From NCBI GenBank assembly GCA_977018835.1, contig OZ361256.1, forward strand, positions 2,356,001 through 2,420,000: a DNA stretch of 64,000 nt. The letters run 5' to 3'. The notes under the pieces were generated by a model. The model saw only the letters and a program-made list of their open reading frames with translations. It was not told the DNA's origin and ran no database searches. Both the position numbers and the translations under genes were made by a program. Within the stretch, counting starts at the first letter, position 1, and each line of letters begins with the position of its first letter. Positions 7,158 through 50,256 of this stretch are shown piece by piece. The DNA comes from Minutocellus sp. GHC0000111. Taxonomy: Eukaryota.

Positions 7158-8237
7158 CTATGAGATTCCACGCAATCCACCCAGGACATGAAGAGGGCTG
7201 ATTGAATCAATCTTGTCGTCTCCGTAGCATAGGGGGCGCCAATTCAGTTGATCCTGATCCGGGGTCCGCCTCACAAGCGTACCGTACATGATACTCAGTC
7301 GCACAGTCGACAGACCAATACATTCGCCATTCGGAAGAAGATCGACAGGGAATTGAATCGACACATCTACAGGCCGTTGGCCAAGAATAACCCTGATTTT
7401 CATGCCTAAATCAGATTGCTCCAGCTCTAACCCACGTGACTCAATTCTGGTAGGACCTCCGTCCTCTGATACGTTTGATGAAAACATCACAACCGAGCTG
7501 ACACCGTTTCTCTTGTAGCCCGAGGACGCCTCATCTCGGACAATAGCAAGATCACCAGGGGATAACACATACCGGACCTTATTAGACGAAATCACAACAA
7601 TATCAGTTCCGCGCACTAGACGAAGACCAACCCGAAGCCCCCTATGCTCACCATGACCATCAAGCCCAATACACGGTCTTACACATGTACATGTCTGACT
7701 CAGGTGACAGCTTGCCTTACCAATGTTGATAGGAGCGCTAAGAGGATAGAGCGCCGATCTGTATTCGAGCATTCCTCCCTCAAATGCCAACCGCTCACCA
7801 AGAACCGCCTCGCCATCAACGCTTACGTCCATGTGGAATGTCAACTTGTCCACACCAACCGGGACAGGAGGAAGTGGAGGAATCGTCGCATGTCTGCTGG
7901 TAAGTCGATCGGAACCATATAACCGACAACAATTACGGATCCCCCCAAAGGATGAAAGAATTTCATCGTCATCGAGGAGCCGCGAGGTAGGCCAATTCAA
8001 TTTGCAAAGTTCGGACCAAACTTCCTCTGAAACACGACAAGAAGTACCAGCCTGATCCACGCGGCCAACATCCCTCACACTTAGCCAGCCATTCGCAACT
8101 AAATCAACCAGGACACCGGCCAACGTAGGCTCGTGTCCATCCCGATGATTAGACTCGGCAACAATGGCGGCATTTGCAAGACGACAGCGTTTATTAGGAC
8201 GACCACCCGAAATTCGCCTCTCTTGTGAACTCATCAT
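7158..8237 (-). CDS. F-box-like protein
   Basis: The 361-codon ORF has N-terminal LVDLVANGWLSVRDVGRV...SEEVWSELCKLNWP, which resembles an F-box plus its typical 'W..LC...WP' tail. Confidence 0.5.
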   Translation of the reverse strand: MMSSQERRISGGRPNKRCRLANAAIVAESNHRDGHEPTLAGVLVDLVANGWLSVRDVGRVDQAGTSCRVSEEVWSELCKLNWPTSRLLDDDEILSSFGGIRNCCRLYGSDRLTSRHATIPPLPPVPVGVDKLTFHMDVSVDGEAVLGERLAFEGGMLEYRSALYPLSAPINIGKASCHLSQTCTCVRPCIGLDGHGEHRGLRVGLRLVRGTDIVVISSNKVRYVLSPGDLAIVRDEASSGYKRNGVSSVVMFSSNVSEDGGPTRIESRGLELEQSDLGMKIRVILGQRPVDVSIQFPVDLLPNGECIGLSTVRLSIMYGTLVRRTPDQDQLNWRPLCYGDDKIDSISPLHVLGGLRGIS

Positions 8238-8445
8238 AATCAAAACAGAGGAAGTCGAGAAGCAGATACACTAACTGCCACCGCAAAAGCCAAGCCCACT
8301 GAAATACCCGAACCACGGCAACTCCAAACCGTAGACAGCTCGTTCGCTCACAAAGCGGCGAAAGGGACCGGGAGACCACCTTTATCCCGGCGTTCATGCC
8401 GGTTAGTTCGGCTCGTGCGGCATATTCTGCTTTGCAGTGCATCAA

Positions 8446-9451
8446 AATTCCCGGCTGGGGGCTGGCGAGTTTCCATTTCTATGAAATAGTTTCCATCTTA
8501 CAATGCGAAGTTCATGTTTTTGATCGGCTCAAGGTTGGACACCTTGACAACTCCTGTGACAGTATATCTTGTGTGGATTGATTGTAGGTAGCTCACTTCC
8601 TAAAGTAAGCTGAGTTGAGTACCATCTTTTCTCTCTCTGTGCAAGAGTCTCCGCTTCAGTGACGAGCTCTTCGAGGTCCACATCTTTTGGATCGTCGATG
8701 AACACCTGCTGTAACTGGCGTGAGAACACAACACAGATCGACATGTGGCAAGTTGGCAGCGATGCAGGTAGCTACTCAATTGTAAAAATAAAAAAGAATG
8801 GGTAAACATACATGCATGTCCCCACCTCCACCTCCACCTCCACCACGAGATCTAGGTCTAGCTACAGGCTGCACACTCCGATGGCGCAAGGCGATGTCTG
8901 TGTGCTAAACCACAAACAAAAGATGGCAGTGTCTACAAAGTGCAGATTGTTCTACAAGTCAGGAGTGTCGTTTCCAACTACACCACCACGACCACCAGCA
9001 AATCTGTGGATTGTTGACACCGATACTTACTCCCACAACGACACCTACACAAACCGATTGCCACCCTGCACCTGGCAAATTGTAGGCGATTTAGTCCATC
9101 CTACGTTAAGATCGAGGTAGAGGCCAACCAGACCTAGGGGAAACTAGCCTACCTTTCAACATGCACTTCAAGACAGATCCAGGAACAACATTTTGTAAAA
9201 AAATATAATCGTTAATAAAACAAATGCATTGAAGAACATAAGAAGAATTTTCTTGTGGTCTGTCCGTCCCCAAAGATGGAATTTTAGCGGAAGACGGCCA
9301 GATAGAATGAGACCGGAATGGCAATCTGTCACAGGGTCACACAATTGTGTCAGATCTGCAGCGACGATCGAAGGCCTACATGTAGATCGAGTAAAATATA
9401 TTATGCTCGTCAAATTCTGCTATTTTTAGACCCTCTCGTGCGATACCCCCC
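8446..9451. mobile_element. Possible degenerate transposon remnant
   Basis: Appears CpG-poor and holds only broken ORF fragments (FIDDPKDVDLEELVTEAETL). It interrupts an otherwise gene-dense block. Termini not established. Confidence 0.3.
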
Positions 9452-9560
9452 TACACATTGGCCGTACATGGGACTGTCGTTCGAAGTCCCTACACTACTA
9501 CTTGCTCTCCACGAGATCTACGCAAAGGGTAGGCCCCATCTACACCTCCACCTCCACCAC

Positions 9561-11451
9561 TCAGTGTGTCTCTGCCTCTTGTATCCCTTTATCACCGAGA
9601 TATTTTAGTAGTTTCACAAACACAGCTTTCAACTTTTTACCTCCGATGTTCAAATTACCGACGTGCCTTTCAAATTCTTTACCTAGCAGGCCATCGCCGT
9701 CGTCATTGCCCCGGCATGCCAGCAAAAGCTCCTCATTGGCCTCTATAAGTGTCTCGATAATCACATCCAGCCCTTGTGTTACTCGGGTAACAGTCCGCCG
9801 AAATCTCTCGCGCCTCGCCCGTTTATCAGGGTCATGACGACTGCAAGCACTGCTCAGGCTGGAGTCGTCATCGAATAACACAATTGGATTTCCTACGCTT
9901 CCCAGTGGTGCCCGTAGGATACCAGTGTCATCGAAAGGACGTTTCCTCCGCCGTATCGAGCCAATCGCATCGTCTCCGTCATTGGAATCGGAAATTCCGT
10001 CCGATGGCAACATCACAACTCTGTATTTATTCAACGTGATATATCCATCACCAGACGACAATGCTCTTGTCCGTTGCGCCAACTGACGATACGCAAGACT
10101 CAAGGGATGGCATCGTACGGCGAGTGGCAATTCCTCATCAACAACATCTGGCAGTCGCTCGACGAGAAAATTGATCGACCGGCGCATGGCATCCACCTCC
10201 ATGCCAGCGTGGAATAAGAGGACAGTTTCGAACGACGCAGGGTCAATCGATATGAAGGTCTCGTCAGAGTAATCCTCGACGAGGCAAGTGTGCCCAGACG
10301 GCAGGAAGGTATTAAGAAGATATCTCAGCCGAACGACCGACGGATGTGAACCGGTGTCGTCCAAAAACCACCAGGGATACCAAACCATTAGAATGACCGC
10401 GAAAAGTAGCGCATATGTCAACACACTTATTTACGAACCACCCAACAAGCAATCAAGGGCCATCAAAATAACGAGATAATCGCGGACTCACAACTTTAGC
10501 TTCCATCATTTCTTGCATTGCCAACTGCACCTTACAACTGTACTTTGAAACATAGCGACCATTATCAACCCCCATATTAAAGCAACGAATAGCATCCCAT
10601 ACATCCTCCGACCGCTCAGTAAGAGTCGTCTGTAGCCATTGCCGATCCTCGTCAGTCAATGAGCCTAGCGCCTTTCCTTCAGAACGGAAGTTACTATACG
10701 CTGAATCTGCTTCCACAAATAAAAATAGGAGGTCACGAACGTCATCAACAGAGGGGGCTTGAGTCATACACCGAAAGAAATCACAAACCACATGAACTGC
10801 TGTCAATTTCGAGATCGGAAGCGAGCATCTATTAGCCAGTCGCCAGATGCAGAGACATTCACGAAAATATCCGAGCCCAGCAGCCCCGCTATCCTTGCTG
10901 AATAAGCAGCTAAACGACACACCCTCAAGTCGACACCGCGCAGCGCTTTCAACCATTGATTCGGCAACAATCTCGTCACACTTGTCTCTCAACCAACCAG
11001 TATCAAAGTAATCAGCCAACACCACGACCCCTTTTGCCTCAGACACGCTCAGGGGTTTGTCGAATATCGTCTCAGCGTGCGTGGCTCGCCACCATGCATC
11101 AACTGCATCGACCGGGAACTGATCAAGGCATATCTCATTGCTTCGTCTGAACTCACTATTAGGAGACAATGCCTTGGCAACCCAGCCCTCCGCCCCGCTT
11201 GTATTATTAATAAGCGCTAGCCTGTGTTCCCTGTTTTCAAAGTGCCCACCATTGTCACACTTTATTGTAACATAATCGTTAGTCAAATACTCGAAGTACC
11301 CAGGAGGCGTGCCACACAAGGGCCTTCTGCCTATGTCGGGATCCCGGACATCCGTATTCAGAAAAATAGCGCAAATTATAACTGTTAATACGGAAAGCAT
11401 TTTTTTATGACAATCAATGACAAGCGTAACGTAGAATAATACACCGAACAA
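9561..11451 (-). CDS. BTB/POZ-like domain protein (paralog 2; intron acceptor non-canonical, possibly pseudogene)
   Basis: Shares DNxGHFE, ALSP, WL..CD..IA, LFS..SG, HVVC.FF..M.QAP, WDA..C.N.GV, LNTFLP, HAGME and SG.GY..LN.Y with 2321-4157. The intron sits at the homologous position 10362-10491 with a GTGAGT donor but ends in TG. Confidence 0.6.
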
Positions 11452-11617
11452 ACATGCCTATTTGTACTCATATCTACTCTAGCTAGTACGTAGCTATGTA
11501 CGTCGAACGAGAACCATGACACCGAACTCAGAACAGAAGCATCACGTCCTGATTCATCTCAAGGATATCAGCAAACCGAGATACCACACACCGATGGTAG
11601 CTAGGCCAACATCGGTG

Positions 11618-12415
11618 TCATTCGGGTATCTCATTATCTCCAGACCCCGAAACTATGCCTTTGACATAAATCCCACGATGAACCTCATGAGACTCAAACC
11701 TCAACGACTCTAGCCACGGTCTTATCCAGTCAAGGTCCTTTATTAGAAATCCACACGCTTCCGTCACTTTAATTACGTCCGTTGGCGGATTCAATCCGGC
11801 TCCGTCCCCAGCCAATCTCACGACACGAATTCCATCCCCATCGCAACCAGTAGAAGGAACACTAACGCCAACGCCATCACAACCAACGCCTACATCTTCC
11901 TCTGTATCAGTTCGTATAACAATACGTTTTTTAGGTCGACAGGATTCAGCTCTACCACCGGTCTCATCCTCACTATCTTCGAACACCCCGTGCCCACCCG
12001 AATACCCGGGGGTGCCGCTACTTCCTCCATTGGTAGCTGCAAAATAAGACAATGATTTGCTCTCCCCGGCCTCGGTAATGTCGAATAATGATTCCGAGTC
12101 ATCAGATTCACTGCGTCTGGCGCGTAATCTTGCCAGTCTTCTTCTACTCATCAGCATTCTCCTGCTCGACAATCTCCTTCTGCTTACACGAATTTTCTTC
12201 GCGTGAATTTTCCCCGGCAAAGATAAATGACGACTGAATATCGATACATAGGGCCGACTGTCCTTCACGATAAATCCTCCGAGTGTGCTGTCATCGCTTG
12301 AATCGTGTAAATCGTCACCCCCTTCCTCCGAGCTATTCTGATGACCACTCTCAACGGCCTCTTCGTCGACATATTGGCTCGAACGGTCCCACTGGATTGC
12401 CTGCATGTATGCCAC
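11618..12415 (-). CDS. Hypothetical protein (acidic and Arg-rich low complexity)
   Basis: 265-codon ORF; no recognisable domain. Confidence 0.4.
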   Translation of the reverse strand: MAYMQAIQWDRSSQYVDEEAVESGHQNSSEEGGDDLHDSSDDSTLGGFIVKDSRPYVSIFSRHLSLPGKIHAKKIRVSRRRLSSRRMLMSRRRLARLRARRSESDDSESLFDITEAGESKSLSYFAATNGGSSGTPGYSGGHGVFEDSEDETGGRAESCRPKKRIVIRTDTEEDVGVGCDGVGVSVPSTGCDGDGIRVVRLAGDGAGLNPPTDVIKVTEACGFLIKDLDWIRPWLESLRFESHEVHRGIYVKGIVSGSGDNEIPE

Positions 12416-12918
12416 TTCCTATTTCGGTTTTCCGTATAACACGTGCAGCCAAATGCGAATTATTCGCGGTATCAATCTTCGTATGCACCACATTAACATT
12501 TTATGGCAACAGCCCCAACAATCGAATCTAAGTCGCGCGAAATAAGTAACCTGGAGTAGCCAAACGAATGCAATGATAACCCGGTTGCCAAAGATTCCGA
12601 CCTCGAAATCTCTACCGGCTACGTAGTAGCAGCTACAACGCCGAAAGAAGGCGAGCCTCTAATTCAGCATGTGATGCATTACAACACGCCGATATTGTAA
12701 ATAGAAAATTACTACCTGCAAACAAGACTACAACCTAACAGTCCTACATAAAAGCGTAGTACACCCGTCGTTTCTCGAGGCACCAGGCGGTCGAAGACCC
12801 TGTGCAATTAGCCCTACGGAATTTTCTTCCAAGGAACCGGTCAATCCAGCTTGGAACAAAAAATCTAAAACCAATCACCGACCCAAACAAACAGGTCAAA
12901 ACAATCATAAAGTAAGTC

Positions 12919-13896
12919 CTACTCAGTCCGACGAGAGTCAGTATCAGGATATTTGTATCCAACTGCCCTAATAAACTGATTGTCTAAGTCGCAGCCGGGG
13001 TACATCCTCGACAGCATCTCCATAATCGTGGTATCCAGATAAAAAGTGTCTAAGGGCTCATCATAACGAATTTCAAGAGTATGACTACGCAAAGCCTCCC
13101 AGACAAAATAGTCAGGATCTTTGATGGCGCCGTACATCCCCTGCCTACCCCCCTCGCCCACAGTCTCTTTTGTATTCTCCTGAAGGACACTTAAATAGAC
13201 ATCCCGGAAAAGCTTAGACCGCAGGAAATCAGACAACCGACTCCCAATGCTGCTTATCTCTTCCTTGACATCAGCGCCGTCTTTGATGTACACAAACCCA
13301 GCCATGACACGAGTCTCGTAGCGACTACCCTTGTAAACGCGGGTCAGAGGAATATTTGGCCCCTGGGCAACCTCTCGCATCGAATACTCACGAAGATTTG
13401 TGAAGAACTCAGGCCACCCCATCCCAGGAATCATAGCACGAACACTATGAATAGCATCGATGAGATGGGAAGACTTAATACACCAGCAGTCCTGATTGAG
13501 AATCAGTCTCTGAAATCGGATAGTCACGACAACAGCACGCTGGAGGTAACCTTCCCCACTGGCCATCGGGCAAACCGACACTCTCAAGGTGTAACCATCA
13601 GCTGCTTTAACAACGGATTCAACAGTTGCCCGGATAGCCTCAGGCTTCACGCCAAAGGCATCAAATACACCCAATCCTCCCTGTTTCTTATCAGCCAACC
13701 CGCTCTCCAAATCAACCGCCCCTTTCCCATTGGCCGATTTGGCACAGGGAGCCAAACCGCGGTCCACGCCGCCATTATCCTTTTTGACCTTCTTGCTTTC
13801 TCTCTCGTCTCCGGAAGACGGATCAACACCCGGGATGCCATTATTCGTTACGGCATCCGATTTGCCTCGGCTCTTATCAAATCGCTTGGATTTCAT
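12919..13896 (-). CDS. Hypothetical protein
   Basis: 325-codon ATG-initiated ORF with a globular-looking C-terminal two thirds; family not recognised. Confidence 0.6.
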   Translation of the reverse strand: MKSKRFDKSRGKSDAVTNNGIPGVDPSSGDERESKKVKKDNGGVDRGLAPCAKSANGKGAVDLESGLADKKQGGLGVFDAFGVKPEAIRATVESVVKAADGYTLRVSVCPMASGEGYLQRAVVVTIRFQRLILNQDCWCIKSSHLIDAIHSVRAMIPGMGWPEFFTNLREYSMREVAQGPNIPLTRVYKGSRYETRVMAGFVYIKDGADVKEEISSIGSRLSDFLRSKLFRDVYLSVLQENTKETVGEGGRQGMYGAIKDPDYFVWEALRSHTLEIRYDEPLDTFYLDTTIMEMLSRMYPGCDLDNQFIRAVGYKYPDTDSRRTE

Positions 13897-14116
13897 GATT
13901 ATAGTCGTATGTCCACCGAACTTAATATTATGACTACATAAATCCCACCCCCCACACCTCTCTCCCTAAGCGGTGATGCACGACCCCGGGCTAGACCGGC
14001 ACCTCGATTCAATGTACCTAGCTAGTCTGATTGCGGAGCCTAACGCCATAAAAAAAACAAGCGGGATACTCGTATAGCAATCACAACCAAAACCCAACAA
14101 ACACACCTCCAACAAA

Positions 14117-18165: not shown

Positions 18166-21100
18166 CTATCGCCTGAACAAGTCTCGGTGACCTTGCACAT
18201 ATGAAATCACCTCTGTTGGATCCCAACTATCCCCCGTCACACCATACCCGCTGACGTAGGCGTCTACGAACGGAGATGGCCGCAAAGATGTGATGTAATC
18301 GAACGACCTCAGTCCAGCCGATCCAGGACCAAGTAATCTAATGCCATCGCGTTCTCTTACTCTGCTCATTGCAACAAGGATAGATGTATGTCCCATCTGG
18401 CAGGCCGAAACTGGTCTCTCACAAAGGGCAATAATAATCTTCTCGATTGTCCGTCCTTCTAATAAATTAACAATGAAGCACATCGATTAGACCAAATATC
18501 ATTCAATGAAAGTTAAAAAGTTGAAGCCCCCCTGGCAACTCACCTGCTTTGTGAATCGTTACCGCAAACCCCAACTCACAACGAATGCGATCCCGGACCT
18601 GAACCTTCGACGGAGGATACCCCGCATCGCGATCCCCGCGAACCGCGCGACTGTGCCACTCAGAAAAACGTGGTTGGCAGGTGATAGGTACTATTACCCG
18701 AGACGCAAGCCCAGTCTGTCTATCACGCTCCGAGACACGAGGCAATCCACCCCCATTCCCTCCAACAGAACGTATAACCCGTTCAAACTCCCGCACGCAA
18801 CAGTGACCGCCAAGTGGAACCTCAACGTTCACTGATCTCGGAGGGGTAATAGTCAAGACGGTCCCAGGAGGGCTGCTAGCCACTTGCTGTCTTACTATCG
18901 CATCCTCCTCAGGCGAGCTCATAGAGACGGAATGATAAACAACAGACGAGCCGTTTGCCAAATTGAATCTGGCGATGATTAAAAATCAAAGAGGGAGGAA
19001 AAGAACGCAACATCAGAATAAATTATTAGAAAATATCAAAGACATACGTACAACATGCACATGACATAGGCGAACTGCAAAATAAAATACAAAAACTGTG
19101 AGAACTCACGAAGGACAAAAATTAGCAGTTATGAACCCAGGCGCCCCAGCAACAAAATACTCGAAAAAGCTCGGATCGTCGAGCGCGCGGGCCCGTCACT
19201 ATCGAGAGGTCTGCCCCTCCACTGCTTCATATCCAAACGCCATCGCAGCACACAGGTCCCTCGTAGCCTGGCAAACGAAACAGCCCGGGAATGCACAAGC
19301 GCCAGCCTCTCTTGATTAGTGGATACCAAAACCGGAGCGGACAACCAGTCAAGATTACGATCAAGGTCGGCAGGCTGTAACACCTTATAACGCATTAAAT
19401 CCCTAACTCTGATTGCCTCGCCGCGCCACATCCGCATCACGAATTCTGTATGGTCAAGGTCCGTAGACCGATGTTGTGTGGTAAGAGGCATCCAAACAAA
19501 AGCCTTGATCAAAGCAAGCCCTCGCCTCATCGAGGACACAGGGCTATACCTATTTCTCAGCACCGCCCAAGTTCTTCTCGTAAATAGCGAGTTGTTGCCT
19601 TCAGTAGTGGCATCGTACACCGCCATCTCCACTGCCCCTTGGCAGATCGAGATGGCTTTGACCGGAGGAAGTTGCCTGAGATCCCCAAACTTAAAGAAAA
19701 CGACATCACGAATAAGCAAATAGATACAGCGAATGAGACGAAGATAACTCAAAAGGGAAACACTACATGCACTTACCAGCAAGATAGATACACCACCGAA
19801 AGGTGCATCCAGACTTGTAGCTTGTCTCAGCCTAGAGTCAATCACTGAAATCAGCTGGGGAGTCAACATTGACATCTCATCCACCAACAAACAACACATG
19901 CTATCAACACAAATACTATCTCTAAATTCCTGGAGGCGGGCCGAGCTCAACGGACGAATCCGAATTTTACATGCACGGCAGTCCTCCTCTCCGTCGTCTG
20001 CTTTCTCGGCAAAAGGAATCTGAAATAAAGAACAAAGCGTCTGTCCTCCAATATGGGATGCAGCTACACCGGAATAGGCTGTCGACACAAGGGCTCCAAA
20101 CCCACATATGTTACACATGCGCTTAATCAACTGCACCAAATATGACTTGCCAGTGCCCGGTCCCCCCGTGACAAGAAGACACGTTGGGTGTGCTGTCGCA
20201 CCGCCACCAGTGTTCCCAACAAATCTAGAATGCAAGAAGCGTAAAACCGCCAACTGATCTCGCGGCGGTTCTCGTCCTCCTTCCAGGATAAAATCTCTAA
20301 TAAACTCTCCAAAACTCCCATTGTTCACTCTCTGATTGGTCATGGTCAACGGCAAGCCTCGTACTCTGTGTGCACCCGAAGTCAACTGCTCAGTCAATGC
20401 CTCCGCTGCTCCATCAGGCAGCGTCGTCACCAGCGATGCAGTGGTCCTGGACCCGGCGCTATTCTGACAGGAAAGTCGAGAGACATCATCGATCTGATGA
20501 GATTGATGATGCACATAGTCGCACATTTTCCATGCATTACGAATTTGAGCAGAAGTTAGATTCTCCTCCTCCCATCGTAATAGATAACCCTTGAGCATCT
20601 CGGAGAACGACGCACCATCGTCTCTAGCAGCGCCTCGGGTAGACCTCCATTTTGTTCTATGTCGAGCACGATAATTGGACAAAGCATCCCTCATCACACT
20701 TGTACACGAATCACGATAAATAGTTCTCATGATAGAAGCATATCGAAATCGGCCAAGAGCATCACTACCCCGCCGAAGATCAGCTATATAAGAAAGGAAA
20801 GCCTGCCAGTCATAACAAAGGCTTACACTCGTCCTAGACCCGGGTCTAAAACACACAAGGTAATAGCGGGCAAAACTATCAGCACGAATAATCCAAGAAT
20901 CTGCGTCCTTGTCAGCTGCGCTAGGCCTTGGTCCCGGCAACATAGGAGCTCTCCCATACATTATCGGCGTACGCTGCTTCGAGCGGATTATTTGCTCATG
21001 CGACTCAAACAAAGGGCAGTCCCGATCAAACTCAAAACGGCGGGTGTATGGCCGTCCCGCTCCCTCGTGACACCTCTTCTTACTCTTGCGTCTGACATCA

Positions 21101-22687
21101 ATCAGAGATGCATATTCGATTCTACTTAAATCCGCCAACGCAAACCCCCTATACTGATATTGCCATGACTGGGTGACCAAAACAGACCGTCCGTCACGTC
21201 CGGTCACTATGTCCCCTGGGCCAAACTGGTCTACCGACACAAAAGGCAGTGGATCCACGTCCATGCCTTCCGCCAGATCAGCGTGACTCGGCAGATCATC
21301 CATACGCTCCCCGGAACCAAGGAAATCTACGAATCTGATGGCTGCATCCCCCCTGAATGGTACAAAGGATTCTGACGTAACGGCTACCTTAAAACCCAAC
21401 AAAGCCGATGCAGCCTGGACATCACTAACCTCCATGATGACGTTGAGCTTATTCAGAAGCCGAGTCAAGAAATGCTGCACAGTTCGACTAATGCTCTCCT
21501 CTGCGGTCTCATCAGCACGATGAAATAAACTAGGGTAGCGTATTACATCTGAAAAAGATTGATGGGCCACGCTAAGATCGTGCACCAGCTGCCTCTTGTT
21601 CTTATTCAGATACGGCACGAGGTACAGGCTCGCCAACCGGGATTCTGTTGAACCACCTAGAGGGACTACGGCAGAATGGCATCGTATTGCAGCCGTGAGC
21701 ACTGGATTGTACGGCACCACCCACTCATTTCGAGTAGGCAACCTCGTCCTAACCCGGTCATACAGCGCTAAAAGGCGATCCGGACTTAAGGCCCTCAATT
21801 GCGCCAACTGAGTAAATGTAAGAGACATTCCAGAGGACTCCATAAGCTCCTGTACACACAAATGCGGATTCGCCTTAAAGTCAAGAGTGGGTGGTAAATC
21901 CCGCTGCAATCGCCGCTTCAACTCCCATCGGATCAGCCTTCTCTCAGGAGGTGCCAACGGCCAATATAGTTCACTGCCTGCACAAGGCGCCTCCACATCT
22001 GACACTGGAGTAACAGATGCATCGTTCCCAGTCACAAGTTGAAACGGTTTCGTGCCGCATTGTTGTTCCCATGGCGCATCAAATCTACAACCGTCTTCAC
22101 CATGTCTGCCTTTGTGACAGGTGTCGCGGTGACGGTGTATGCCATTGCAACAAATGCACTCCTCCACATCTCCTCGAAAGCCGGCAGCATCATACAAAGG
22201 AGATCGCGCTACACCCAACGCGGGCCACACACACCCAGACTCGTCTGCTAGGCCTTCCAGCCTAGCTTCGCTTCTTACCAAATCCCGCACATGCATCCAC
22301 CTAGGTAACTCGGCAACGTACATCTTGTCCATCGCATCTGCCAAAACGCTGCGAGCCGTCGAATGATGAGCGCCACCTTCTAGCATGCGGGCAGTCAGAC
22401 CACCCCACAACAAAGCGTGAAAATGAAGAGAGCCGCGCCCCTGGGCCTCTACAACCCCAAAACACGCTCTACACCGACCAAATGCACCTTTAGGGCGCTC
22501 ACCGAAGTAGGTGGTCTTTCTATCGCAGCCCCTATCACTCGTCAAATATGAAAAATCAGTACAACCAACAAGGGCGCTCACAATGTCGCCTATCAGATCA
22601 CAAAAACCAACTGCCGCGGCAACGGGGTTCCGCTGGGCCGACCGCACACGACAGGCATGGGAACAGTCAATAGTAACAAGACCGCCC
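18166..22687 (-). pseudogene. Helitron RepHel transposase (HUH Rep + PIF1 helicase), 5'-truncated, 3 introns, 1 frameshift
   Basis: Rep motifs: NPVAAA, FGVVEAQGRGSLHFHALLW (HUH), HRHRDTCHK...CRF, YLVPYLNK (Y2). PIF1 motifs: TGGPGTGKS, AYSGVAA..IGGQT, VDEMSM, PFGG..FGDLRQLPPV, LTTQHR, LANGS, FAVTIHKAEGRTI, VAMSRVR. Introns at 19690-19776, 18969-19109 and 18459-18543. Frameshift near 19190. The frame stays open up to the LTR at 22688. Confidence 0.93.
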
Positions 22688-22883
22688 TGCTAAGAGGTCC
22701 TAAAGCTAAGCTAGATAGATATAGCTAGTAGAGGTTAATAGGACCTACGTAGATGAAAAATGGGCCATCGGAGATGTCGTTGGCCCATGGATCAACGGTC
22801 AGGAGAGGGCACTGAGTCAGTGGTCTGATCACCGTACGTACCGTACGTATGTATACGTACGTACGTATCCCACGGTGTCAACA
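22688..22883 (-). repeat. 3' LTR (196 bp)
   Basis: TGCTAAGAGG...GTGTCAACA; direct repeat of 28688-28885 with 6 substitutions and one 2-bp indel. Confidence 0.97.
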
Positions 22884-22894
22884 CACCCTCGCAG
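22884..22894 (-). promoter_or_regulatory. Polypurine-tract-like plus-strand primer site (CTGCGAGGGTG)
   Basis: Immediately precedes the 3' LTR on the element's sense strand. Confidence 0.75.
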
Positions 22895-22931
22895 ATCAAT
22901 GACTAGTGCCATTGAATCTACATGTAGAGTC

Positions 22932-25900
22932 CTAATTGGAATCTACATGTAAGTAGACTGGTCGCATGTCGACATGGTAGCGGGCGGGATGGTGCTTTGT
23001 AAAATAATCGGCCAAATTTTGCGGTCCTTTCCGCCAGCACACCTGGAATTGTCGTTGCTCTATGCGATCTTGGACCCAGCAGAGTCTCATGTCCATAGCC
23101 TTAGACCGTCTTTGCTTGACGCGATTCCAGATGCTGTAGAGTTGTCAACGACGATAGCAGTAGGGGGCTGCGGGTGACCCATTTCTTCTAGTGCTGCCCG
23201 GATTGGCACCACTGCTGCATCTTTCATGTTGAAAAATAGTCCTCCCAATTCGGCTTCAGCGGCTGAGGACATTGCATGCTTGATGACATCGGCATTGACG
23301 AGGATGGCTCCATTCATTGGTGGCATGGGATCACTTGAGTCAGGCTGGCGGTGCGGGTCCTTAGGTTGGGAGCTTAGGTAGAAGTGCCCACCGAGCTTGC
23401 TTCTTGATTTCGGGGCTGATGAGCAGGAGGCGTCGCCATGTGCATGTGGGATCATGTCTGACTTGACGTGTCGAATGACTGCATCGGGATGGGTTGCAAG
23501 GCAATCTAGAAGCTTCTTGGCATCTTGTCGAGTGCGCTCGGTAGCTTTGGATTGTTCCGCTGAGATGCCATTGAGCGCCGGTAAAATTGTTGAATCAATT
23601 GCTCGACCATAGTGCAAGGAGCTGCCCACCACCTGTTGAATTTCGTTGATGCCTTTGGCGTCGAGTGGTGGTGAGTCGTCTTCCGGTTCTGGCAGCTGGG
23701 GTCCCGGGCCATGCGTCGGACGATTCCATCGACATGGCGCATGCTCGGGCCGTGAGGGGCGGTCGTGTTGGAACTTGTGGCGCATCTCCTTGACGTAGTT
23801 AGGCATAGATAGATCCACCCATTTGGCCTCGTAGTTCCACTCGAGTTGAATGCCACAACAAAGTCGGCCTTCCCAATCGGTAGTGATCTTGTGCTTGGAG
23901 TTGAGGGCCTGAATGAGATGGTCTGCGTGCTCTTTCCCGACACACTTTACTCCAAAATCGTCAACGGTTAGGCAAAAGGTAATTGGGCGGGTTTTGTGCC
24001 TCCAAAGGCCGGCAGTGCGCTTGCAAGGGAAATAGCCATGGGGTTTGAGATGCTTGACAAGTTGATCGTAGGCTAGGCGCCCTGCCTGGGGTAATCCATG
24101 CATTCCGCCATCGATTCTGACCAATACTCGACCATTCTTTACTTTGTCGTGGAGGTCGTAGGCTTCCATGACTTCGTCGGGGATGAGAGCTACTGGCGCC
24201 CACATCCATTCTGGCTCTGGCATGGTGCTGTTGAGATAGAAGTCACTGATGTCAATTCCCATGAAACGAGCGTTGTCTGTAGAGATGACGCTGTTGAAAA
24301 GCAACTTTGCAGTCAACATTTCAGCGGTCGGGGTCGAGACTGTACCAGGGTAATGAATTTTGTCGCCTCCTGCAGTCCATCGAACTCGATTGGGATTTGG
24401 TTTATGGGAGCGATAGTCGGCGACAATGCGGAGGCATGTGGCTTTTTCCCCCGAGGCAGTTCGGACCAGTGGACGAAAGCCATTGTATTGGAGGGAATGC
24501 TAGCACTGTTTCCAACTCGGCCGTCCGTTAGCCGTCCAATTTCATCGATGTTTGCTTGAATGAATTGGTCCCTCATGTTCGTTTTGAGGAGGTCGCGGTA
24601 TTCAAGCATTGCACCAGTATCGGGATGGACGACGGCGTTAGCAAAGTGTTGGAGGTTTGGTAAAGGCGAGAAAGCTGCCATGTTGGCCACGTGGTGGGCA
24701 CTACGACGAGATGATGGCCGTGGGGGAGGGTTCCGATGTGGAATGTACCCTCGCTGACGGTGTGATCGTCGTCGAGGTGGTTTGGCGGTCGATGGTTTGG
24801 ACTTGCTTGTCGATTTTGCTGGAGCTGGTAATGTTGGAGTGGTATCGATCGTTGGAGACTTGCGTTTACGTTGCCGACGGGAGGTGGGGGCATTGGAACT
24901 TTGATTGGATGTTACGACGGTTGCATCGTCGTCATGATTGTCATCATCGTCGCCGTTGGGCTCGTCTACTGCAGCCAAAGGATTGTAGTAGTTGGAAGAA
25001 ACTGACGAGCGAGGTGGCGCGTTGGATCGACGTGATCGACGGCTTTCAGTGGTGGCTGCATCATGTGTGGAGGATTTTGCCACCCTCGGAGGTTGCTGGG
25101 GCTGAGGTAACGGAGCGTTGGGGTTGGAGACAAGGTGACGGCCTACTTCAGTCTCGTTCATCTCTTCTACGTCGTCGTCCTCGTATTTGATTTTGTAGTA
25201 CTTATACTTCTTGTCAAATGCAACGACTCTACCCTTGTAATTGCGATCTCCAAACACTTTGGCGACGATGGTACCGAGGAGGAATCGTTGGGAGTCGTCA
25301 TCGTTCTCCAGCACCCTCGGAGCTGCGGTTGTCTGCATCGTCTCATCAGAGGCGGAGGTGGCAGATTCTGCTGGGGTCACGCTGTTGAAAATCTCGGAGA
25401 GCTTTTCTAAAGCTTGACGATGCTCGTCTCGAAGGGGAGCAAGGGGTGCCGCTGGATGTGGATTCTGTAGAGCGTGCAGGAGTTCATGAGCTGCGACTAT
25501 TGCTGCATCGGCCGACGACGTTTTGGGTACCGGAATCATTTTGGGGAGCCAGACGAGTGTGTTACCAGTGCGTTCCGCCCGAGTTTCCTCAATCCAAACC
25601 TTGTAACACCGGGAGTGTTCCATGGCTGGACCGACATAGTACCCATCAACGCCATGCGGGGACCAAGAGCCGCGTGCCGAGGGCATCTCGTGAAAGATGA
25701 CCTTGCATCCGAGGGGGCCGAGAGGCGTGCGATTGAAATCAAAGCCGCCATTGAGTTGCTCGTACGCTGATAGTCGAGGGTTGACTCGGGATGCTCTCAG
25801 GAAATTGAGGGTCATTACCGCCTGCTCCAGCAATTTGTCCCACAAGATGAGGGGAAAGTCGGGATCGGTACCACAGAGAATCGCAATGAAATGATTCTTA

Positions 25901-27000
25901 AAGGTTCGAATGGCTCGTTCGGCCGCATTTCGGCGGTGGGAGTGCGTTGGGGTCAATTGAAAATCTACATCCTTTTCTTCCATGAACTCCTTCAGCTCTC
26001 GACTCACTTCATTGTCCAATCGTTGCAATTTTGGGCGAAATCCTCGCTTGGAGAGGTGTTCGAAAATAGTTTGGTGCGCTCGGCGCATTTCCGTTCCCGA
26101 TCGGCTTTTCATTGGTTCGGCCAAGATGCTGTTGGAGTCATAGTCATAGACGACCATTATGTGCTGGTGGCCAGAAATAGACGATGCCAAGAAACGGCCG
26201 GGCTGATCTGAGAAGATCTGGCCCGTTATGTCATGACAATCAGCAAAGACATAGTTGGTGCGCTGTTGGTGTTGTGCCGGGTGGAGATCCTGCTCGGTTT
26301 CGTCCACCCCAGGGAGAGATTTTGGCGTAGCCATCGACCGTTTGGGCTTGGTCGACCTGATGTTCTTGCGCTGCTGGTCTAAGTGACCTTTAATCATCGG
26401 TATCGACTGTGGCATGTGCTTACGTACAAGCTTTGATGTGAGGCCTGGCCAAGATCTATAAAATCCCGCATCGATTGCTTTGCACCAGGTGGATAGCTGA
26501 GGACTGCCAGCGCACCAATGTAAAAAGGCTACACGTTCTGGAACCGTCTCCTGGGCAATTGCGGCGTTGGCAGCATGTTGGATGACGTTGGGGCCGGGGA
26601 GCGGCGACATGGTGGGCGAGCAATTAAGATCTACCATCCACAATTTCGTTGAGGGGTCTCGTTTACCTTGCAAAATGACGGCATTGTCCTTGGCGATGAC
26701 TACCGAATCCTTATCGAAAGTGGCAACACATCCATCGTCACACAGCTGCCCAATCGATAGGAGCGATGATGCCATATTATTGAAAATATAGGCCTTGCTA
26801 GCCGATGGGAAACCCCAGGGAGGCGAAGCGTGGCCTCGTGGGTGTTCGTCATTGTGCTATTATCCGGAAGGGTGACGCTGATAGGAATTGCTGTCTGTTG
26901 GACGTTGAAAATAGGGCCATCGCACGATAGGCATTGGGGCTTCTGGACAAAATGTCCCGTCGTTCCAGTATCTGCTGCGAGGACGATTGGCTCTTGAGTT
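22932..27000 (-). pseudogene. pol: Copia pol: protease, integrase, Tudor-like domain, reverse transcriptase, RNase H
   Basis: PR: AADTGTTGHF (~26960). IN: IFSDQPGRF, LDNE, HRRNAAERAIRTFKNHF. RT: DISDFYL, GMHGLPQAG, LTVDDFGVK. RH: DAS, SSAAEAE, VDNSTA, NLADYFTKHH. Frameshifts near 26850, 24445 and 23120. Confidence 0.95.
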
Positions 27001-27099
27001 GGAGGTTTGCTTTAGAAAAGCTAACGAAGGCGGGGAGGAGGTGGATTCAGATATACTATCCTCTATTTTATACTGATTAATATCCACCGTCCCTCCCGC

Positions 27100-28386
27100 T
27101 CAGTTACGACGCGAGCTACCACCGCAAGGATTGTACTTGGTGGCGTTATCAACGTGGTTGGGCCCTTTGCAAGTGCATTCAAAGCTGGGGTGGTTGGACG
27201 AATAGCAGCACGTGTGGCAATAATGGCCTCTGGGGAGGATCGACTGCAGTTCCCGCTTCTCCTGGCGGTTGAGGTTAGGACCTTGGCCTGGGAAGTGGCC
27301 GGTGCCGTTCTGCTGGCCACCGCCGCGGTAGCCTCCACTGCCACCAGCATGGTTGCGTCCCTCACGCAGAGCGCGGTTCTCGGCCTTGAGTGAAGCTATT
27401 TCTTGGCGAAGTTTGGCAATGGTATCATCCTTCTCGTTGCTCTTTTTGGCGAGGTTCGCCATCATGGCTTGGTTGGTCTTGAGGGCTTCGGTGGTGTCAG
27501 CCAAAAGGAGATCGGCTCGAGAAAGAAATGGATCGTCCGAGGCCGATGAGGCCAAATTCGCGCCATGATATCCTGCCGCTTCGGTGGTGGTGTTGGCCAT
27601 CTTCTTGTCATGCCAATCGCGGAAGTCCGACTGCATGTTGGCCCACGTGCGTTCGGCCTCCGGTCTGTCGTCCCAGTCCTCGCATGCCTTCTTTGCCAAT
27701 GAGAACCTGCGCACGGAGCGGTAGAGCTTGGAGACCTTTTGCTTGTTGGTGAAGGGTTCGCCGGCCGTTTCAAACGCCTTGAAGACTTTGTTGAATGTGG
27801 CGATGTGGGTGTCGATGGGTCCCCCGTCGCACTGCTTCTCGAGCTGCCTGCTTCTCTAATTCCTCCTTCTGAGTCTCGTTGAATTTCAAGCAGCGATCGG
27901 CAATGCTGTCGATGATTTGGCGGATGGTGACTGGCTGGAAACCGAGCATGTCATCTTCGAGATGATTGATGTAGACAGCGTCGATCGAGTCGAGGAGGAG
28001 ATTCTTGAGCGCCGTGTTGACTTGCTCGTACAAGTTGCAGTGGCCCTTTTCGATGTGACATCCCCGGATTGCACGATCGCGTTGGTCTAGATTGGCCACG
28101 GCGGAAATGGTGGGGCTGGGACCAGGATTTGCCGGAGGCACATGTGGTCGGCCGTTACTTTTGGTGGTGTGTTCGGCATCGCTGACGACGAGGCCCAAAT
28201 GGCCGAGGTCATGTGGTCATTGTGCCCTGCTGGAATGCTGGCCGCCGCTTGTTGAAGTTCCTTGAGCGCTTTGGCAACACGCTCGCGTTGGGGAGGTTGT
28301 CCTGGGTCATTCATGCGTGTGATTAACTTGGTGGGGAGAATCGGCGCTGCGCCGAGAGGTTGGCCAAAAACTGCGTCGGGATTCAT
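27100..28386 (-). pseudogene. gag: Copia gag, fragmented
   Basis: Fragments ALKNLLLDSIDAVYINHLEDDMLGF, ACEDWDDRPEAERTWANMQSDF and Zn-knuckle-like HYCHTCCYSSNHPSFEC...H lie across three frames. Confidence 0.85.
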
Positions 28387-28678
28387 GCTGGTGTTTCAGT
28401 CAGCGAAGACAGGCAGCACGCGGCGGTGTTGCTGCGAGACGTGTGATCGACAGAAGGTTCGATCCAGAGAAGTGTGATCGATTGGATGGGTCGATCTGGT
28501 CAGGACTTTCGGGGAAGGGATTGGATCGTCGTTCCAATATTGTCGAAAGAAACGGTCGTTTTGGCCGATTGAAGATGTGTCGGTTTTTCTTGCGCGTGAC
28601 GACGAGTGAGAACCAACCCAAGACAAACCGGTGAGGTGCGAACCGAAATGGGGCGAGCACGGGTGGAAAAGATGTATC

Positions 28679-28687
28679 ACGTAGGTC
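28679..28687 (-). promoter_or_regulatory. Primer-binding-site position, complementary to the element's own LTR
   Basis: Sense-strand GACCTACGT directly after the 5' LTR, with no TGG tRNA-type start. Its exact complement lies inside the LTR at 28742-28750. Confidence 0.6.
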
Positions 28688-28885
28688 TGCTAAGAGGTCC
28701 TAAAGCTAAGCTAGATAGATATAGCTAGTAGAGGTTAACAGGACCTACGTAGATGAAAAATGGGCCATCGGAGATGTCGTTGGCCCATGGATCAAGGGTC
28801 AGGAGAGAGGGCACTGAGTCAGTGGTCTGATCACCGTACGTACCGTACATATGTATACGTACGTACGCATCCCACGGCATCAACA
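28688..28885 (-). repeat. 5' LTR (198 bp)
   Basis: TGCTAAGAGG...GCATCAACA; matches 22688-22883. Confidence 0.97.
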
Positions 28886-29323
28886 GAAGTGTTTGATGAA
28901 TTGAGTGAGCAGCACTTGATGCTCGACTCGAGCGTTGAATCCTCGAGAAGTAATGCCAGTCAGTCTTCGACGGCGTCGAGTTGGCAGAGTGAATCGGCTG
29001 AGGATTTTTCAGTCGGTATTATCGAGGTGTTAGAGGCAGTCGAAGCTGCTGAGATCATTGCCGATCTCTCAACGTCGAGGGAAGTGTTTTCCGCATTTGA
29101 CGATGGAACACGTTGTGCGGAATGCAATCGCGAATTCGATTCGGAGGGTTTAGTTTGGAAGATCCACTACAATAATTGCGCGTCGTGTTCGGTCTCCATT
29201 TGTCCCGCCTGTTATTTGGTGGTTCCTATGATGAACGGCAAGATGTGTGGTTGCTGCGGCGAGTGGCATTGCGACAACTGTTACAACGATCATGAGATTG
29301 AAAGTGGCTTCATTGACGAGTAA
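28886..29323 (+). pseudogene. Cys-rich zinc-finger ORF, 5' end cut by the LTR
   Basis: CAEC...H..NCASCSVSICPAC...CGCCGEWHCDNC. The upstream part of the listed ORF is LTR sequence. Confidence 0.55.
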
Positions 29324-30163
29324 AAGCGGAAGTGCTGAAGTCCTCTCTTTTCAGCGCATCAAAAAAGACCGGCTGTAGATGTAGAGTTGATGCACGGATG
29401 TCCACAATTTCTCGGTCATTGTTTGTTTTTTTGTACGTAAATTAGACATGAACATGTGTGCATGCGTTTTTGATTGCTGCTGCGGCTTGACATGCTGGTT
29501 GTTTTGACATGCTGCGGATTTGATGAGGCGCCGTCATTCACAAGCACATTTACTATTCCAACGGGGCTTCAACAGTAGATCTCGTGTGAAAGCTGAGGCC
29601 TAGGTGAATGGTTTTGTCTATGTGGGCATTGGCACCACCACCATTGTGGTCGTGTAGTTGAAATTTGAAGCGAGGACGCAAAGGCATTTTGTCATAGAAG
29701 CTTCTACCGAAGCAAGCTACTAGTACGGAGATACAGGTAGTTTGAAAGTGAAGTTAAGTCTATGCACATATATTTTTTCGTTCATTCATTGGTTTAGGGC
29801 AATCATGTAATATGCGGTAGGTAACGAAACACCCCTCGAGGTGTGTTGAGGCCAACGTAATGCACTTTCAAGAGACAATGGCGCGCCTGGAGCACGGAAA
29901 ATGAAGTTTCGGTGGGAGATGCGCGAGCGGGAGACATGCTAGATGCGCGAGCGTTAGATGCTCCGTAGCTACGTAGATCGCGCAGCGTTAGTGTTAGCGA
30001 GCTTTTTGCGCGAGATTGACGACGTGTCCACAATGTTTCTGATAAGCGGATGGTTGAAGTGAAATCTGTCTGACATGCTGGATGACACCCGGCGCATGTG
30101 TGGCACGCTGATAAATTCGCTTTTGTGTCCTGCCTGCCCTTGGGGCAAAAGAAGCTGCTATCG

Positions 30164-30459
30164 ATGACAGGAATTGGATCAATCCCAAGCCACGAAAGCA
30201 CCCTTGTCGTCCACATGTTGGAATCAGATGGCGAGATTACTAGCACATGTTCGAAGCATTCGGAACCGATGTCGGAGGTGCTTAGCAAGTGCCACGAGAA
30301 ACGAAAGAAAGCAGACTCAGGCACCTACAGGTGTCTAATGGACGGCGAGCGCGTGTCACCCAAAAGTGAGAACATGAAGACAGTCGGTGATTGTGCTTTA
30401 GAGTGCGAGTCAGACGGCGTGTGTTGCAGTTGACCTGTTTTGCCGAGCAGGTGGGTGGA
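30164..30459 (+). pseudogene. SUMO/Rad60-like ubiquitin-fold relic
   Basis: PMSEVLSKCHEK...YRCLMDGERVSP...KTVGDCALE, followed after frameshifts by VDLF/AEQVGG (SUMO-type Q-x-GG). Confidence 0.65.
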
Positions 30460-31316
30460 AGTTTTGTAGCCTTTGATCCTCCTGAGACGGTGACTCGACA
30501 CGTGTGCGCAAGCACATCAGCAAGCAGTGGTCCAGGGATGATGTTCTTAAATGGATTCCTGAGCCTGTTTCTTCTTCGGCGTGGACTTGGTTTTGCGCGC
30601 GCCGATCGATGCTGTGGGGTTTTTGCACTGACTGGCATTGGCCATGGTTGAGCGTGGGCAAAGGAACATGTGTTTGACTTTTCCGGTGCATCTGTTAATG
30701 AAAAATGAGCATTAAGGAAGTGCTACGGAATGTGGAAGGAGACGCAGATCCCGTGCCGATTCGATCAGCAGCATGTCATGTTTGCCATGCTGCGCCAGGA
30801 CATGTGCTGCTCCAGCATGTCTGATTTTTTTTAAACGTGAGTCGTATGAGTCGACTGTCTCGGCAAGACAGGCCTGTCTTGAAAGTAGCCGCCGCATGGG
30901 TTGGAGTGCTCGACTCTCACATTCCTCATCTGTAACATCAAGGACATAGCACTTTTTATTGGAGTATTACTACAGAGTTCGCCAAGAGGTATTGTTGCTC
31001 ATCCCCCCAGAATGGTCTGCGTTCGAAATCGTGTCGGCGGGACGAAGCGACCGGTTGTTGCTAGATGGGCCGCGCCCACCCTCCAAGCGGTGACGACTGT
31101 CTGTCTTAGAAGGCACCCGGGCCCACCTACGTAGGTACGAACATATGTACGTACGAACCAAAATTGGTACGTACGGCATGCCGCCGCCGAGCGTATCTTT
31201 TTCTCGAGTGTGTCACTGTGCGTAGTAGCGGACACCATGGCAACGAAGGGGGCACAACAATTGCGCAGTTGAGGACGCTACCTCCTACATCATAGAGACA
31301 CAAAAGAAACAAGAAA

Positions 31317-48026: not shown

Positions 48027-50256
48027 TTAGCTGAGATTGAAAACTCCACGTCCGGCATTCACCGCGTAGAAGGTATCGGCAAAGACAAGCGAGAGGACGG
48101 CCATGAGCTTCATGACAATGTTGAGAGCAGGACCGGAGGTGTCCTTGAACGGATCACCGACGGTGTCACCAACAACGGCGGCCTTGTGGATGTCGGATCC
48201 CTTGCCCTTGAGCTCGGAATCCGGGGAGGCCTTCTCAATGTACTTCTTGGCATTGTCCCAGGCACCACCGGAGTTGGACATGGAGATGGCCAGCTGCACA
48301 GAGGCGATGAGAGATCCGACGAGAAGACCGGAAACGGCAGTAACGCCGAAGAAGATACCGGTGAGGAGGGGAGTGCCCATAACCATGATACCAGGGGGGA
48401 CCATCTCTCGCAGGGAGGCCTTGGTGGAGATGGCAATGCAGGCATCGTAGTCGGGACGCTCGGTGGGGTTGGCATCGAGAAGGTGGGGCTTCTCATCAAA
48501 CTGGCGCTGAACCTCCATAACCATGGCCATGGCGGCCTCACCGACAGACTTAATGGTCATGGCGGCAAAGGCAAAGGGGATCATACCACCGATGATGAGG
48601 AAGGCGAAGGTCAGAGGCTCGAGCATGTTGACACCAAGAGAGAAGAGGGCATCATCCGAAGAGTGACGGATGCGGGTGACGAAGGCACCGAACAGAGCCA
48701 ACGACACAAGGGCGGCGGATCCGATGGCGAAACCCTTGCCGATGGCGGCGGTGGTGTTACCGGCGGCATCGAGGGCATCGGTCTTCTCACGGACGGCGGG
48801 GTCGAGCTCGGCCATCTCGGCAATACCTCCGGCGTTGTCACAGACAGGTCCGTAAACATCGATGGTAAGGCCGGTGGCGAGGTTGGAAAGGAAGCCAATG
48901 GCGGCAAGGGCGACACCATACATGTCGCAGAGGGTGAAGGAACCATAGACGACAAGGGCAAGGACGATGACGGGGATGATGACGGACTTGCATCCGAGGG
49001 CAATGCCGTAGATGATGTTGGTGGCGGCACCGGTCTTGCACGAGTTGGCAACCTCACGGACGGGCTTGTAAGAGTGGGAGGTGAAGTACTCGGTGAGGAG
49101 ACCAATCACGAGACCACCGACGGCACCCATGATGACGCAAACAGCGGCCTCCCAGGGGCTGAGAGTAAGAGTCTTGTCAATACCGACGGCAGCCTTGAGC
49201 TCGAAGGCGGGGGGAAGGAAACCGACGGCGGCACCGTAGACGGCGGGGATCATGAGGACGGTGGTGGAGATGAGCTGAAGCTTGAGGGCGTTCTCAACGC
49301 CGGCCTCGGTCTTGACGGGGAGGATGTGAGTGGCCAAGAAGGAGCAGACGAGGCAGACGGCGATACCGACGGCCGACACAATGATGGGGAAGACCATGGC
49401 ATCCCAACCACCGGTGAGGCCGATGGAAGAGCCGATGACGAGGGCAGCGCAAGTGGCCTCGGCGAAGGAGCCGAAGAGATCGGAACCCATACCGGCGACG
49501 TCACCGACGTTGTCACCGACGTTGTCGGCAATGGTGGCGGGGATCGTCCTCGGGGATGCCGTGGACGACCTTGCCGACGAGATCGGCACCGACGTCGGCG
49601 GCCTTGGTGTAGATACCACCACCGACACGTCCGAACATGGCAATGGAGGAACCACCGAGGCCGTATCCGGTAAGAGACTCGGTCAGGTAGATCCAGTCAT
49701 CGGCGACGGGGTAGTGGACACGGAAGGCCAGAGCGGTGAGGTAGAGCATGAGAATGCCCAGACCGCAGAGGGCGAAGCCCATGACGGCACCGGCGCGGAA
49801 GGCGGTGTTGAAGCAGGCGGTCCAGCCGGGCTTCTGGGCGGCGACGGTGGTACGGACGTTGGAGAAGACGGCGACCTTCATGCCGAGGTATCCGGAAACG
49901 ATGGAGGTTCCGGCACCAAGGACGAACGACACAGCCGTGAAGAGACCACGGGCAAAGTCCCATCCGGTGCCCCAGGAAACCAGGACGAAAATGACAGCGC
50001 CGAAGACCACAATGAAGTAAGCGCAGACGGTGTACTCGGCCTTGAGGAAGGACTCGGCACCCTCGTAGATGGCCTCGTAGATCTCGATGAGACGGCGGGT
50101 GGTGGCCTCGTCGTTGGCGCCGGAGACGAGGGACGATCCCTCATCGACGGCCTCGGACTTGACGGGGATCCGGGCGATGACCAGGAACTGCAGGAGGCCC
50201 CAGACCATGCCGATGATGGCGGCACCGATGATGATGCTCGTTGCGGAGAACTGCAT
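48027..50256 (-). CDS. Vacuolar-type H+-translocating pyrophosphatase, frameshifted by an 8-nt deletion
   Basis: [84 protein letters not shown]. The frame breaks at about 49540. Confidence 0.95.

Follow-up and report, generated by a model that had tools for sequence, protein, structure and literature searches.

TpA-directed A:T to G:C hypermutation, reverse to RIP, in copies of a diatom Copia-type retrotransposon

Introduction

In the alga Bigelowiella natans, integrated NCLDV and virophage DNA accumulates A>G and T>C changes at TpA only, on both strands, locally, and unevenly in time and between lines, at a de novo rate, measured directly, that is raised about 1000-fold (Mettrop et al., bioRxiv 10.64898/2026.01.13.699255). 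The same study proposes an ADAT2 homologue as the enzyme and describes reverse transcriptase and DDE domains as enriched among TpA-poor coding sequences (bioRxiv 10.64898/2026.01.13.699255). Its main text makes no mention of diatoms, retrotransposons or LTRs.

Other systems share single features with this process. RIP in ascomycetes leaves repeats densely marked by context-bound transitions, on either strand, and strikes the copies independently, as was observed here. RIP is also known to spill into flanks. However, it converts C:G to T:A, mostly at CpA, and creates TpA, whereas the diatom process destroys TpA and raises GC, so that the direction is reversed. ADAR and APOBEC3 are likewise responsible for host-made hypermutation of retroelements and mark one strand of a copy, a signature that single diatom copies do not carry, since TA>TG and TA>CA occur in them together. 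The TadA and ADAT2-3 enzymes and the adenine base editors turn A into I, which is read as G, with a strong preference for a 5' U or T. TadA8.20 favours a 5' U by 5- to 10-fold, in line with the preference stated in the first-pass annotation of this DNA, with UAU edited most and UAG also edited well, and the natural substrate context of TadA is U-A-C (PMC12027372). The natural enzymes, however, act on tRNA, and the context UAG that TadA8.20 accepts is cold in the diatom copies.

The DNA analysed here, called the window, is a stretch of 64,000 nucleotides from the diatom Minutocellus sp. GHC0000111 (contig OZ361256.1, positions 2,356,001 to 2,420,000). It contains a Copia-type element struck by a real and apparently targeted, reverse-RIP-like mutator, which works like the B. 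natans process and not like RIP: the TpA-only spectrum and the involvement of both chromosomal strands match. B. natans is a rhizarian and its targets are single-copy viral inserts, whereas the present host is a stramenopile and the target is a multi-copy LTR family that can be followed copy by copy. The diatom case is further marked by a preference for RTAY, by LTRs that were largely spared in the window copy and by an adjoining Helitron-like gene that escaped, and the accessible B. natans text describes no flank preference. New are therefore the host group, the target class and the four-base preference; the pattern was found in print for one unrelated alga only, and a literature search at listing level, in which subscription journals were thinly covered, returned no report of TpA hypermutation in diatoms.

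Sequences and Methods

Near-identical siblings of the element were collected by protein search, nearly all of them on long ENA contigs. The seven sibling clusters held 74 members, of which 59 were used and 58 cover the main frames; five siblings that were identical over their overlap with another were removed, leaving 53 copies (fragments) and 884 codon columns. The siblings are predicted proteins, which do not record silent sites and represent copies with open frames. The direction of change was set by distant relatives, 117 for the RT-RNase H part and 116 for the integrase. Contigs of public runs were compared over positions 18500-31000 (40 of 146 differences listed) and 22890-24500, and sites near contig ends are missed by both comparisons. 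The 2010 run X5 covers part of the region with TA alleles only and was not counted in favour of the derived alleles. In a metagenome scan all matches were distant relatives (45-48% identity), apart from one short piece (L006) that was left out; five of these relatives served as unmutated controls. In run X10 the element contigs reached a depth of about 8,000-14,000 against 130 for the neighbouring RepHel; the run depths suggest tens of element copies and provide no copy number.

The Copia Element

The region under study lies in a Copia-type element of 6.2 kb, LTR-bounded and dead, of which it makes up the RT-RNase H part (Table 1). The paired LTRs with TG...CA ends are as in Ty1/Copia, and so is the order of the domains, with the integrase preceding the RT-RNase H part and a reverse transcriptase of the RVT_2 type. 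In the mutated copy the RVT_2 match has an E value of 9e-6, and its score of 25.9 lies below the curated cut-off of 31.6. PF07727 is present in many relatives, and the named relatives of the integrase come from Phaeodactylum, Fragilaria and Mayamaea. The gag-like region is putatively assigned from its position and a C-terminal Cys/His cluster. Frame breaks near 23120, 24445, 26806-27013 and 27844 and further upstream show that this copy is dead.

Table 1. Features of the Copia-type element and of the compared DNA (window coordinates)
Feature	Position	Strand	Remarks
RepHel (Helitron-like helicase)	19129..22687	-	N-terminus cut by the LTR; used as control
Copia-type element	22688..28885	-	
3' LTR	22688..22883	-	196 bp; 22 TA retained, 10 of them RTAY
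Purine-rich tract	22884..22893	-	Just before the 3' LTR; read from the sequence
RT-RNase H part	22932..24460	-	Region under study
RNase H tail	22932..23144	-	Shifted reading frame, following a 10-nt deletion near 23120
pol ORF 2	23087..24499	-	RVT_2 reverse transcriptase and RNase H
pol ORF 1	24313..26856	-	Integrase-like region and Tudor domain (PF21743); TpA-hit
gag-like region	27100..28400	-	Broken into ORF pieces; TpA o/e 0.31; indels against run contigs
Primer-site position	28676..28687	-	No TGG-type tRNA end; pairs with an LTR-internal stretch in the folded RNA
5' LTR	28688..28885	-	TG...CA ends; 198 bp; 20 TA retained, 9 of them RTAY
Low-copy right flank	28886..31000	.	17/25 differences TA-type, among those listed (40 of 146 rows)
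H+-PPase codon TGC (Cys)	48990..48992	-	ATAC-type context; relatives Tyr 103, Phe 17, Cys 0 (n=120)

No target-site duplication was found at the element ends, where the flanks read CGCCC and GAAGT, and the missing N-terminus of RepHel (about 700-900 residues) does not lie on the far side of the element. The locus is likely a recombinant of two insertions, or else a mis-join. Because the duplication is lacking, the two LTRs may derive from different insertions, which makes the pair weaker as a clock. They differ by six substitutions, of which four are TA-linked, and one site reads TG in one LTR and CA in the other. The left junction is bridged by just 24 letters of one run contig.

Substitution Spectrum and Direction

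In the diatom Copia copies, A:T>G:C transitions are confirmed to occur almost only at TpA. The 34 Tyr-type columns hold 485 residues over all copies, namely 284 Tyr, 117 Cys, 81 His, two Asn, one Phe and no Arg, which amounts to 198 transitions against three transversions, and one and the same Tyr codon can read TG in some copies and CA in others, but never CG. Counted where the window carries the majority residue, A>G was seen at 38 of the 84 TpA sites open to it, compared with 22 of 735 in other contexts (p 1e-26; 27-fold in event rate). This contrast is conservative, since the 22 probably include TpA sites lost in the window itself. At the 17 Tyr columns that are conserved in the 117 relatives, these relatives have Tyr in 1,885 of 1,970 residues and His or Cys in 10, while the window has five Cys, four His, seven Tyr and one Trp.

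The first-pass annotation had proposed from the window alone that TpA-specific A:T>G:C changes, as TA>CA and TA>TG on both strands, had replaced conserved Copia residues, with the ancestral residues taken from a family consensus. The TpA specificity is borne out by the spectrum among copies, tabulated by context at the protein level as had been suggested there, and the ancestral state by the siblings and the 117 relatives, which carry Tyr at the Tyr columns. The motifs that it quoted are present in the minus-strand ORF at 23087-24499. Nine of its ten TA-linked examples are backed by siblings with Tyr or Val: with the window included, the bracketed position reads Y2/C2/H8 in GM[H]G, Y5/H4/C5 in K[C]VG, Y4/C3/H6 in K[H]K, Y8/H1/C4 in L[C]CG, Y3/C8/H5 in L[H]Y, Y10/C4 in D[C]L, Y3/C5/H6 in IR[H] and Y7/C1/H10 in PT[H]G, and in KH[A]M six of seven siblings have Val. 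The tenth, WT[A]GG, found no support; both siblings that span the site have Ala and the main run contigs agree with the window there, so Ala may be the family's own residue. With this exception, siblings hold Tyr or Val at the same codons. The five changes listed for the RNase H motif are all TA-linked, and sibling P0132 reads ILHVHSDASYLS.

The run contigs extend this to the DNA level. Among 22 variable sites in the RT-RNase H part, 14 are TA-type, six are CA/CG-type (one of these is half of a TA swap, and two more may be) and two are other, where about 22% of positions are able to give a TA-type transition. Silent TA sites, at 24230, 24251 and 24302, are also hit.

Composition tells less. 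The TpA o/e is 0.50 in the RT-RNase H part, 0.68-0.74 in the five unmutated relatives and 0.57 in host genes, and in the 1-kb windows that had been recommended as a check the element could not be separated from host genes. The ratio alone is indecisive and the residual context is decisive: RTAY makes up 2 of the 35 TA sites surviving in the RT-RNase H part but 18 of the 53 in relative L003 (p 0.002), and none of the 10 remaining Tyr codons lies in RTAY.

Sequence Context of the Hits

Sites of the form purine-TA-pyrimidine go fastest. In the context of the A strand, 154 of 468 RTAY were hit, 36 of 248 YTAY and 8 of 248 RTAR, YTAR being unsampled by Tyr codons, and the median load per site was 0.67 at the 15 RTAY sites against 0.15 at the 19 YTAY sites (p 4e-6). 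In the reads, 32 of 37 TA-type differences are TAY, among the differences listed, for a background of 55-60%.

An adenine deaminase is the candidate enzyme for this chemistry, a reading that we hold at even confidence, by analogy and with a sequence record that is symmetric. An A followed by a pyrimidine is a T preceded by a purine on the other strand, and a TA>TG change becomes TA>CA when read from the opposite strand. The context thus does not tell an A target from a T target, and a thymine-centred chemistry would leave the same record. In such a chemistry the T of R-T-A would be modified in silenced DNA, for example by oxidation of the TET/JBP type, and mispair with G; oxidised thymine can indeed mispair with G. 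This symmetry favours attack on thymine as much as attack on adenine, and TadA8.20 edits UAG well while TAG is cold here, which leaves the fit of a deaminase partial. Known polynucleotide adenine deaminases, on the other hand, already show the 5' T/U preference, and the authors of the B. natans report favour an adenine deaminase. We regard attack on thymine as improbable, although it is the alternative to be taken most seriously.

The spectrum bears on a second alternative, an error-prone, pol eta-like polymerase that is engaged in copying or patching silenced repeats and, at TA, wrongly places G opposite the template T. Pol eta errs most at WA, above all at TA, and mainly by A>G, and such a polymerase would act in patches on both strands of chromosomal DNA. 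However, A>G after A is rare in the copies (7 of 206 sites, against the 38 of 84 after T), and three transversions beside 198 transitions at Tyr codons make a cleaner spectrum than that of pol eta. Such a polymerase is a less probable source than modified thymine.

Timing, Independence and Load per Copy

Variants of different types have different histories. Transversion variants are private (39 of 43 are singletons), so the copies radiate star-like from a single burst. TpA variants, in contrast, recur in several copies yet are incompatible, with 157 of 246 pairs of TpA characters failing the four-gamete test against 135 +/- 8.5 in 300 shuffles, so the TG and CA states are recurrent and not inherited, and each copy was hit alone after the burst. 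In 28 of the 36 copies with at least two Tyr hits, both His and Cys are present, that is, both strands were hit, as the first-pass annotation had held. In the 44 copies that were sufficiently covered, the load per copy ranges between 2% and 57% (from 1/41 in P0276, which is almost intact and speaks for the direction of change, to 13/23; the window has 24/96) and is overdispersed (permutation p 0.001). It is uncorrelated with other divergence (rho -0.02, n=44), at the low power given by 86 other changes in 10,179 residues. By analogy, this pattern fits the on/off process of B. natans, as an indirect test.

These data also bear on a further alternative, in which RNA or cDNA of the transposing element is edited in the manner of ADAR or APOBEC, once per copy. 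A load that varies among copies and does not track age is what a one-off event at insertion would give, and double-stranded cDNA edited before integration could account for the element itself. However, editing of one strand of RNA or cDNA would not give both outcomes in a copy, as seen in 28 of 36, at one site the TG of one LTR faces CA in the other, and the same signature occurs in DNA outside the element. Editing during transposition is thus marginally less probable again than the polymerase. A chromosomal TpA mutator that acts after insertion is, by contrast, very probable.

Sequencing or assembly errors in unpolished repeats would be suggested by the small indels in the window copy and many siblings, and the runs carry no record of their platform. 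The read support that had been called for was found: both alleles are present in the public-run contigs, and the derived alleles occur at large and similar shares in contigs from two studies (e.g., at 23080, 23424 and 23437-23438). The load differs 25-fold among copies, and no such changes occur in the adjoining RepHel; errors are therefore a very remote explanation. Finally, the origin of TG and CA by CpG deamination of a methylated CG ancestor, or His and Cys as native residues, is refuted for the Tyr columns and has next to no probability overall, since a CG ancestor would read Arg (0 of 485 residues) and the siblings and 117 relatives have Tyr, although there is a mild excess of CpG transitions (17 of 193 sites; for transversions, 37 of 3,961) and the Ala of WTAGG may be native.

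Reach of the Process in the Window

RepHel adjoins the element and retains all 11 of its conserved Tyr, with 17 Tyr codons still in RTAY. None of its three read differences is TA-type, among the differences listed, and all three are transversions. It had no match among the viral contigs scanned. The LTRs of the window copy are also little affected, with 3 of about 23 RTAY sites hit against 13 of 15 inside the element. The low-copy right flank, whose ORFs had no useful Pfam or PDB match, is hit. The suggestion that the process looks targeted stands as far as RepHel is spared, but it has to be qualified: most of the LTR sites escaped, while the right flank and possibly one host codon did not.

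On two simple models these observations point both ways. In favour of a repeat trigger, the multi-copy body is hit and the low-depth RepHel is not; against it, the LTRs, although repeated, mostly escaped, and hits occur in the low-copy flank. The spared LTRs in particular are not predicted by a plain repeat-sensing model. For confinement to foreign or mobile DNA, the element is hit, but RepHel, itself mobile DNA, is spared, and one H+-PPase codon reads Cys.

The H+-PPase, whose named relatives are diatoms (84-88%), keeps nine of ten strongly conserved Tyr, the tenth being Phe, and one further Tyr/Phe column reads Cys (Table 1). This codon is Tyr in a 99%-identical protein, and the change is possibly a stray hit, judged from the sequence; that protein differs at three residues, of which one is TA-type, so that chance or error is possible. 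At conserved positions the two proteins differ by this Tyr>Cys and by a Met>Ile (query residue 333), which may represent a stray hit, an allele or an error.

Each LTR contains a tandem, self-complementary GTAC array (22835-22870 and 28837-28872), in which the RTAY sites mostly survive. Protection by a hairpin is an idea only: the array folds with most RTAY paired, as any palindromic array would.

Proposed Mechanism and Its Implications

Taken as a whole, we favour, with somewhat better than even confidence, chromosomal TpA hits made copy by copy, likely after insertion and likely by a host adenine deaminase on unpaired, silenced DNA. The near-identical copies would stem from a burst of one master. 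An ADAT2/TadA-like deaminase, active only at certain loci and times, would turn the A of T-A-Y into inosine, its substrate being transiently single-stranded DNA of silenced loci, and replication would fix inosine as G. A hit would destroy its own target, so that the other strand would no longer be a substrate and TA>CG would not arise. With the loss of Tyr, Val, Leu, Ile and Ser codons in the catalytic region, the copy would die. That the mutator is an evolved defence and not a by-product seems to us the better of the two readings, again with somewhat more than even confidence.

More speculatively, and on balance doubtfully, the process could be a natural DNA adenine editor of diatoms, guided to silenced mobile DNA, acting at RTAY on unpaired DNA in locus-wise bursts that spill into flanks and occasional host genes, and shared with Bigelowiella. 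It would then represent a SAR-wide "reverse RIP" immunity and a natural counterpart of the engineered adenine base editors. The engineered editors were obtained only by evolving an enzyme of tRNA, and a natural version for genomic DNA, if true, would be both a new defence and a tool.

The process acts in the opposite direction to the prevailing AT bias of mutation. It would make dead elements richer in GC, and in diatoms it would lead both LTR dating and the annotation of repeats astray. With dozens of copies of about one age and loads between 2% and 57%, the Copia family can serve as a test bed in which locus, chromatin and sequence context are separated in one genome.

Further Features of the Element and the Window

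The primer-site position and the LTR-internal stretch (28660-28770, minus strand) pair over about 12 bases (z -4.67), and none of 200 shuffles was equally stable. From the sequence, this pairing may allow self-priming. Self-priming is known from Tf1-type elements, and a literature search at listing level returned none for a diatom Copia. A Tudor domain (PF21743, E 7.5e-12) lies at 25140-25275 on the minus strand, at the C-terminus of the integrase, and could guide insertion to marked chromatin.

The first part of the window (1-22687) is ORF-dense, with a TpA o/e of 0.75-0.78 and a low, flat read depth over 18500-22700, and gave no Pfam or PHROG matches except RepHel and one weak nucleotidyltransferase match. 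It is possibly a giant Helitron-like element with cargo, as yet unmutated. The genes around the element mark the host as a diatom: besides the H+-PPase, the window carries a light-harvesting gene that, among solved structures, is closest to fucoxanthin-chlorophyll proteins. A second light-harvesting gene (45687-46409) has a TpA o/e of 0.17 at a GC of 0.64, with the motif RLRYVE intact; such low TpA results from codon bias and represents a risk of false positives for scans by composition.
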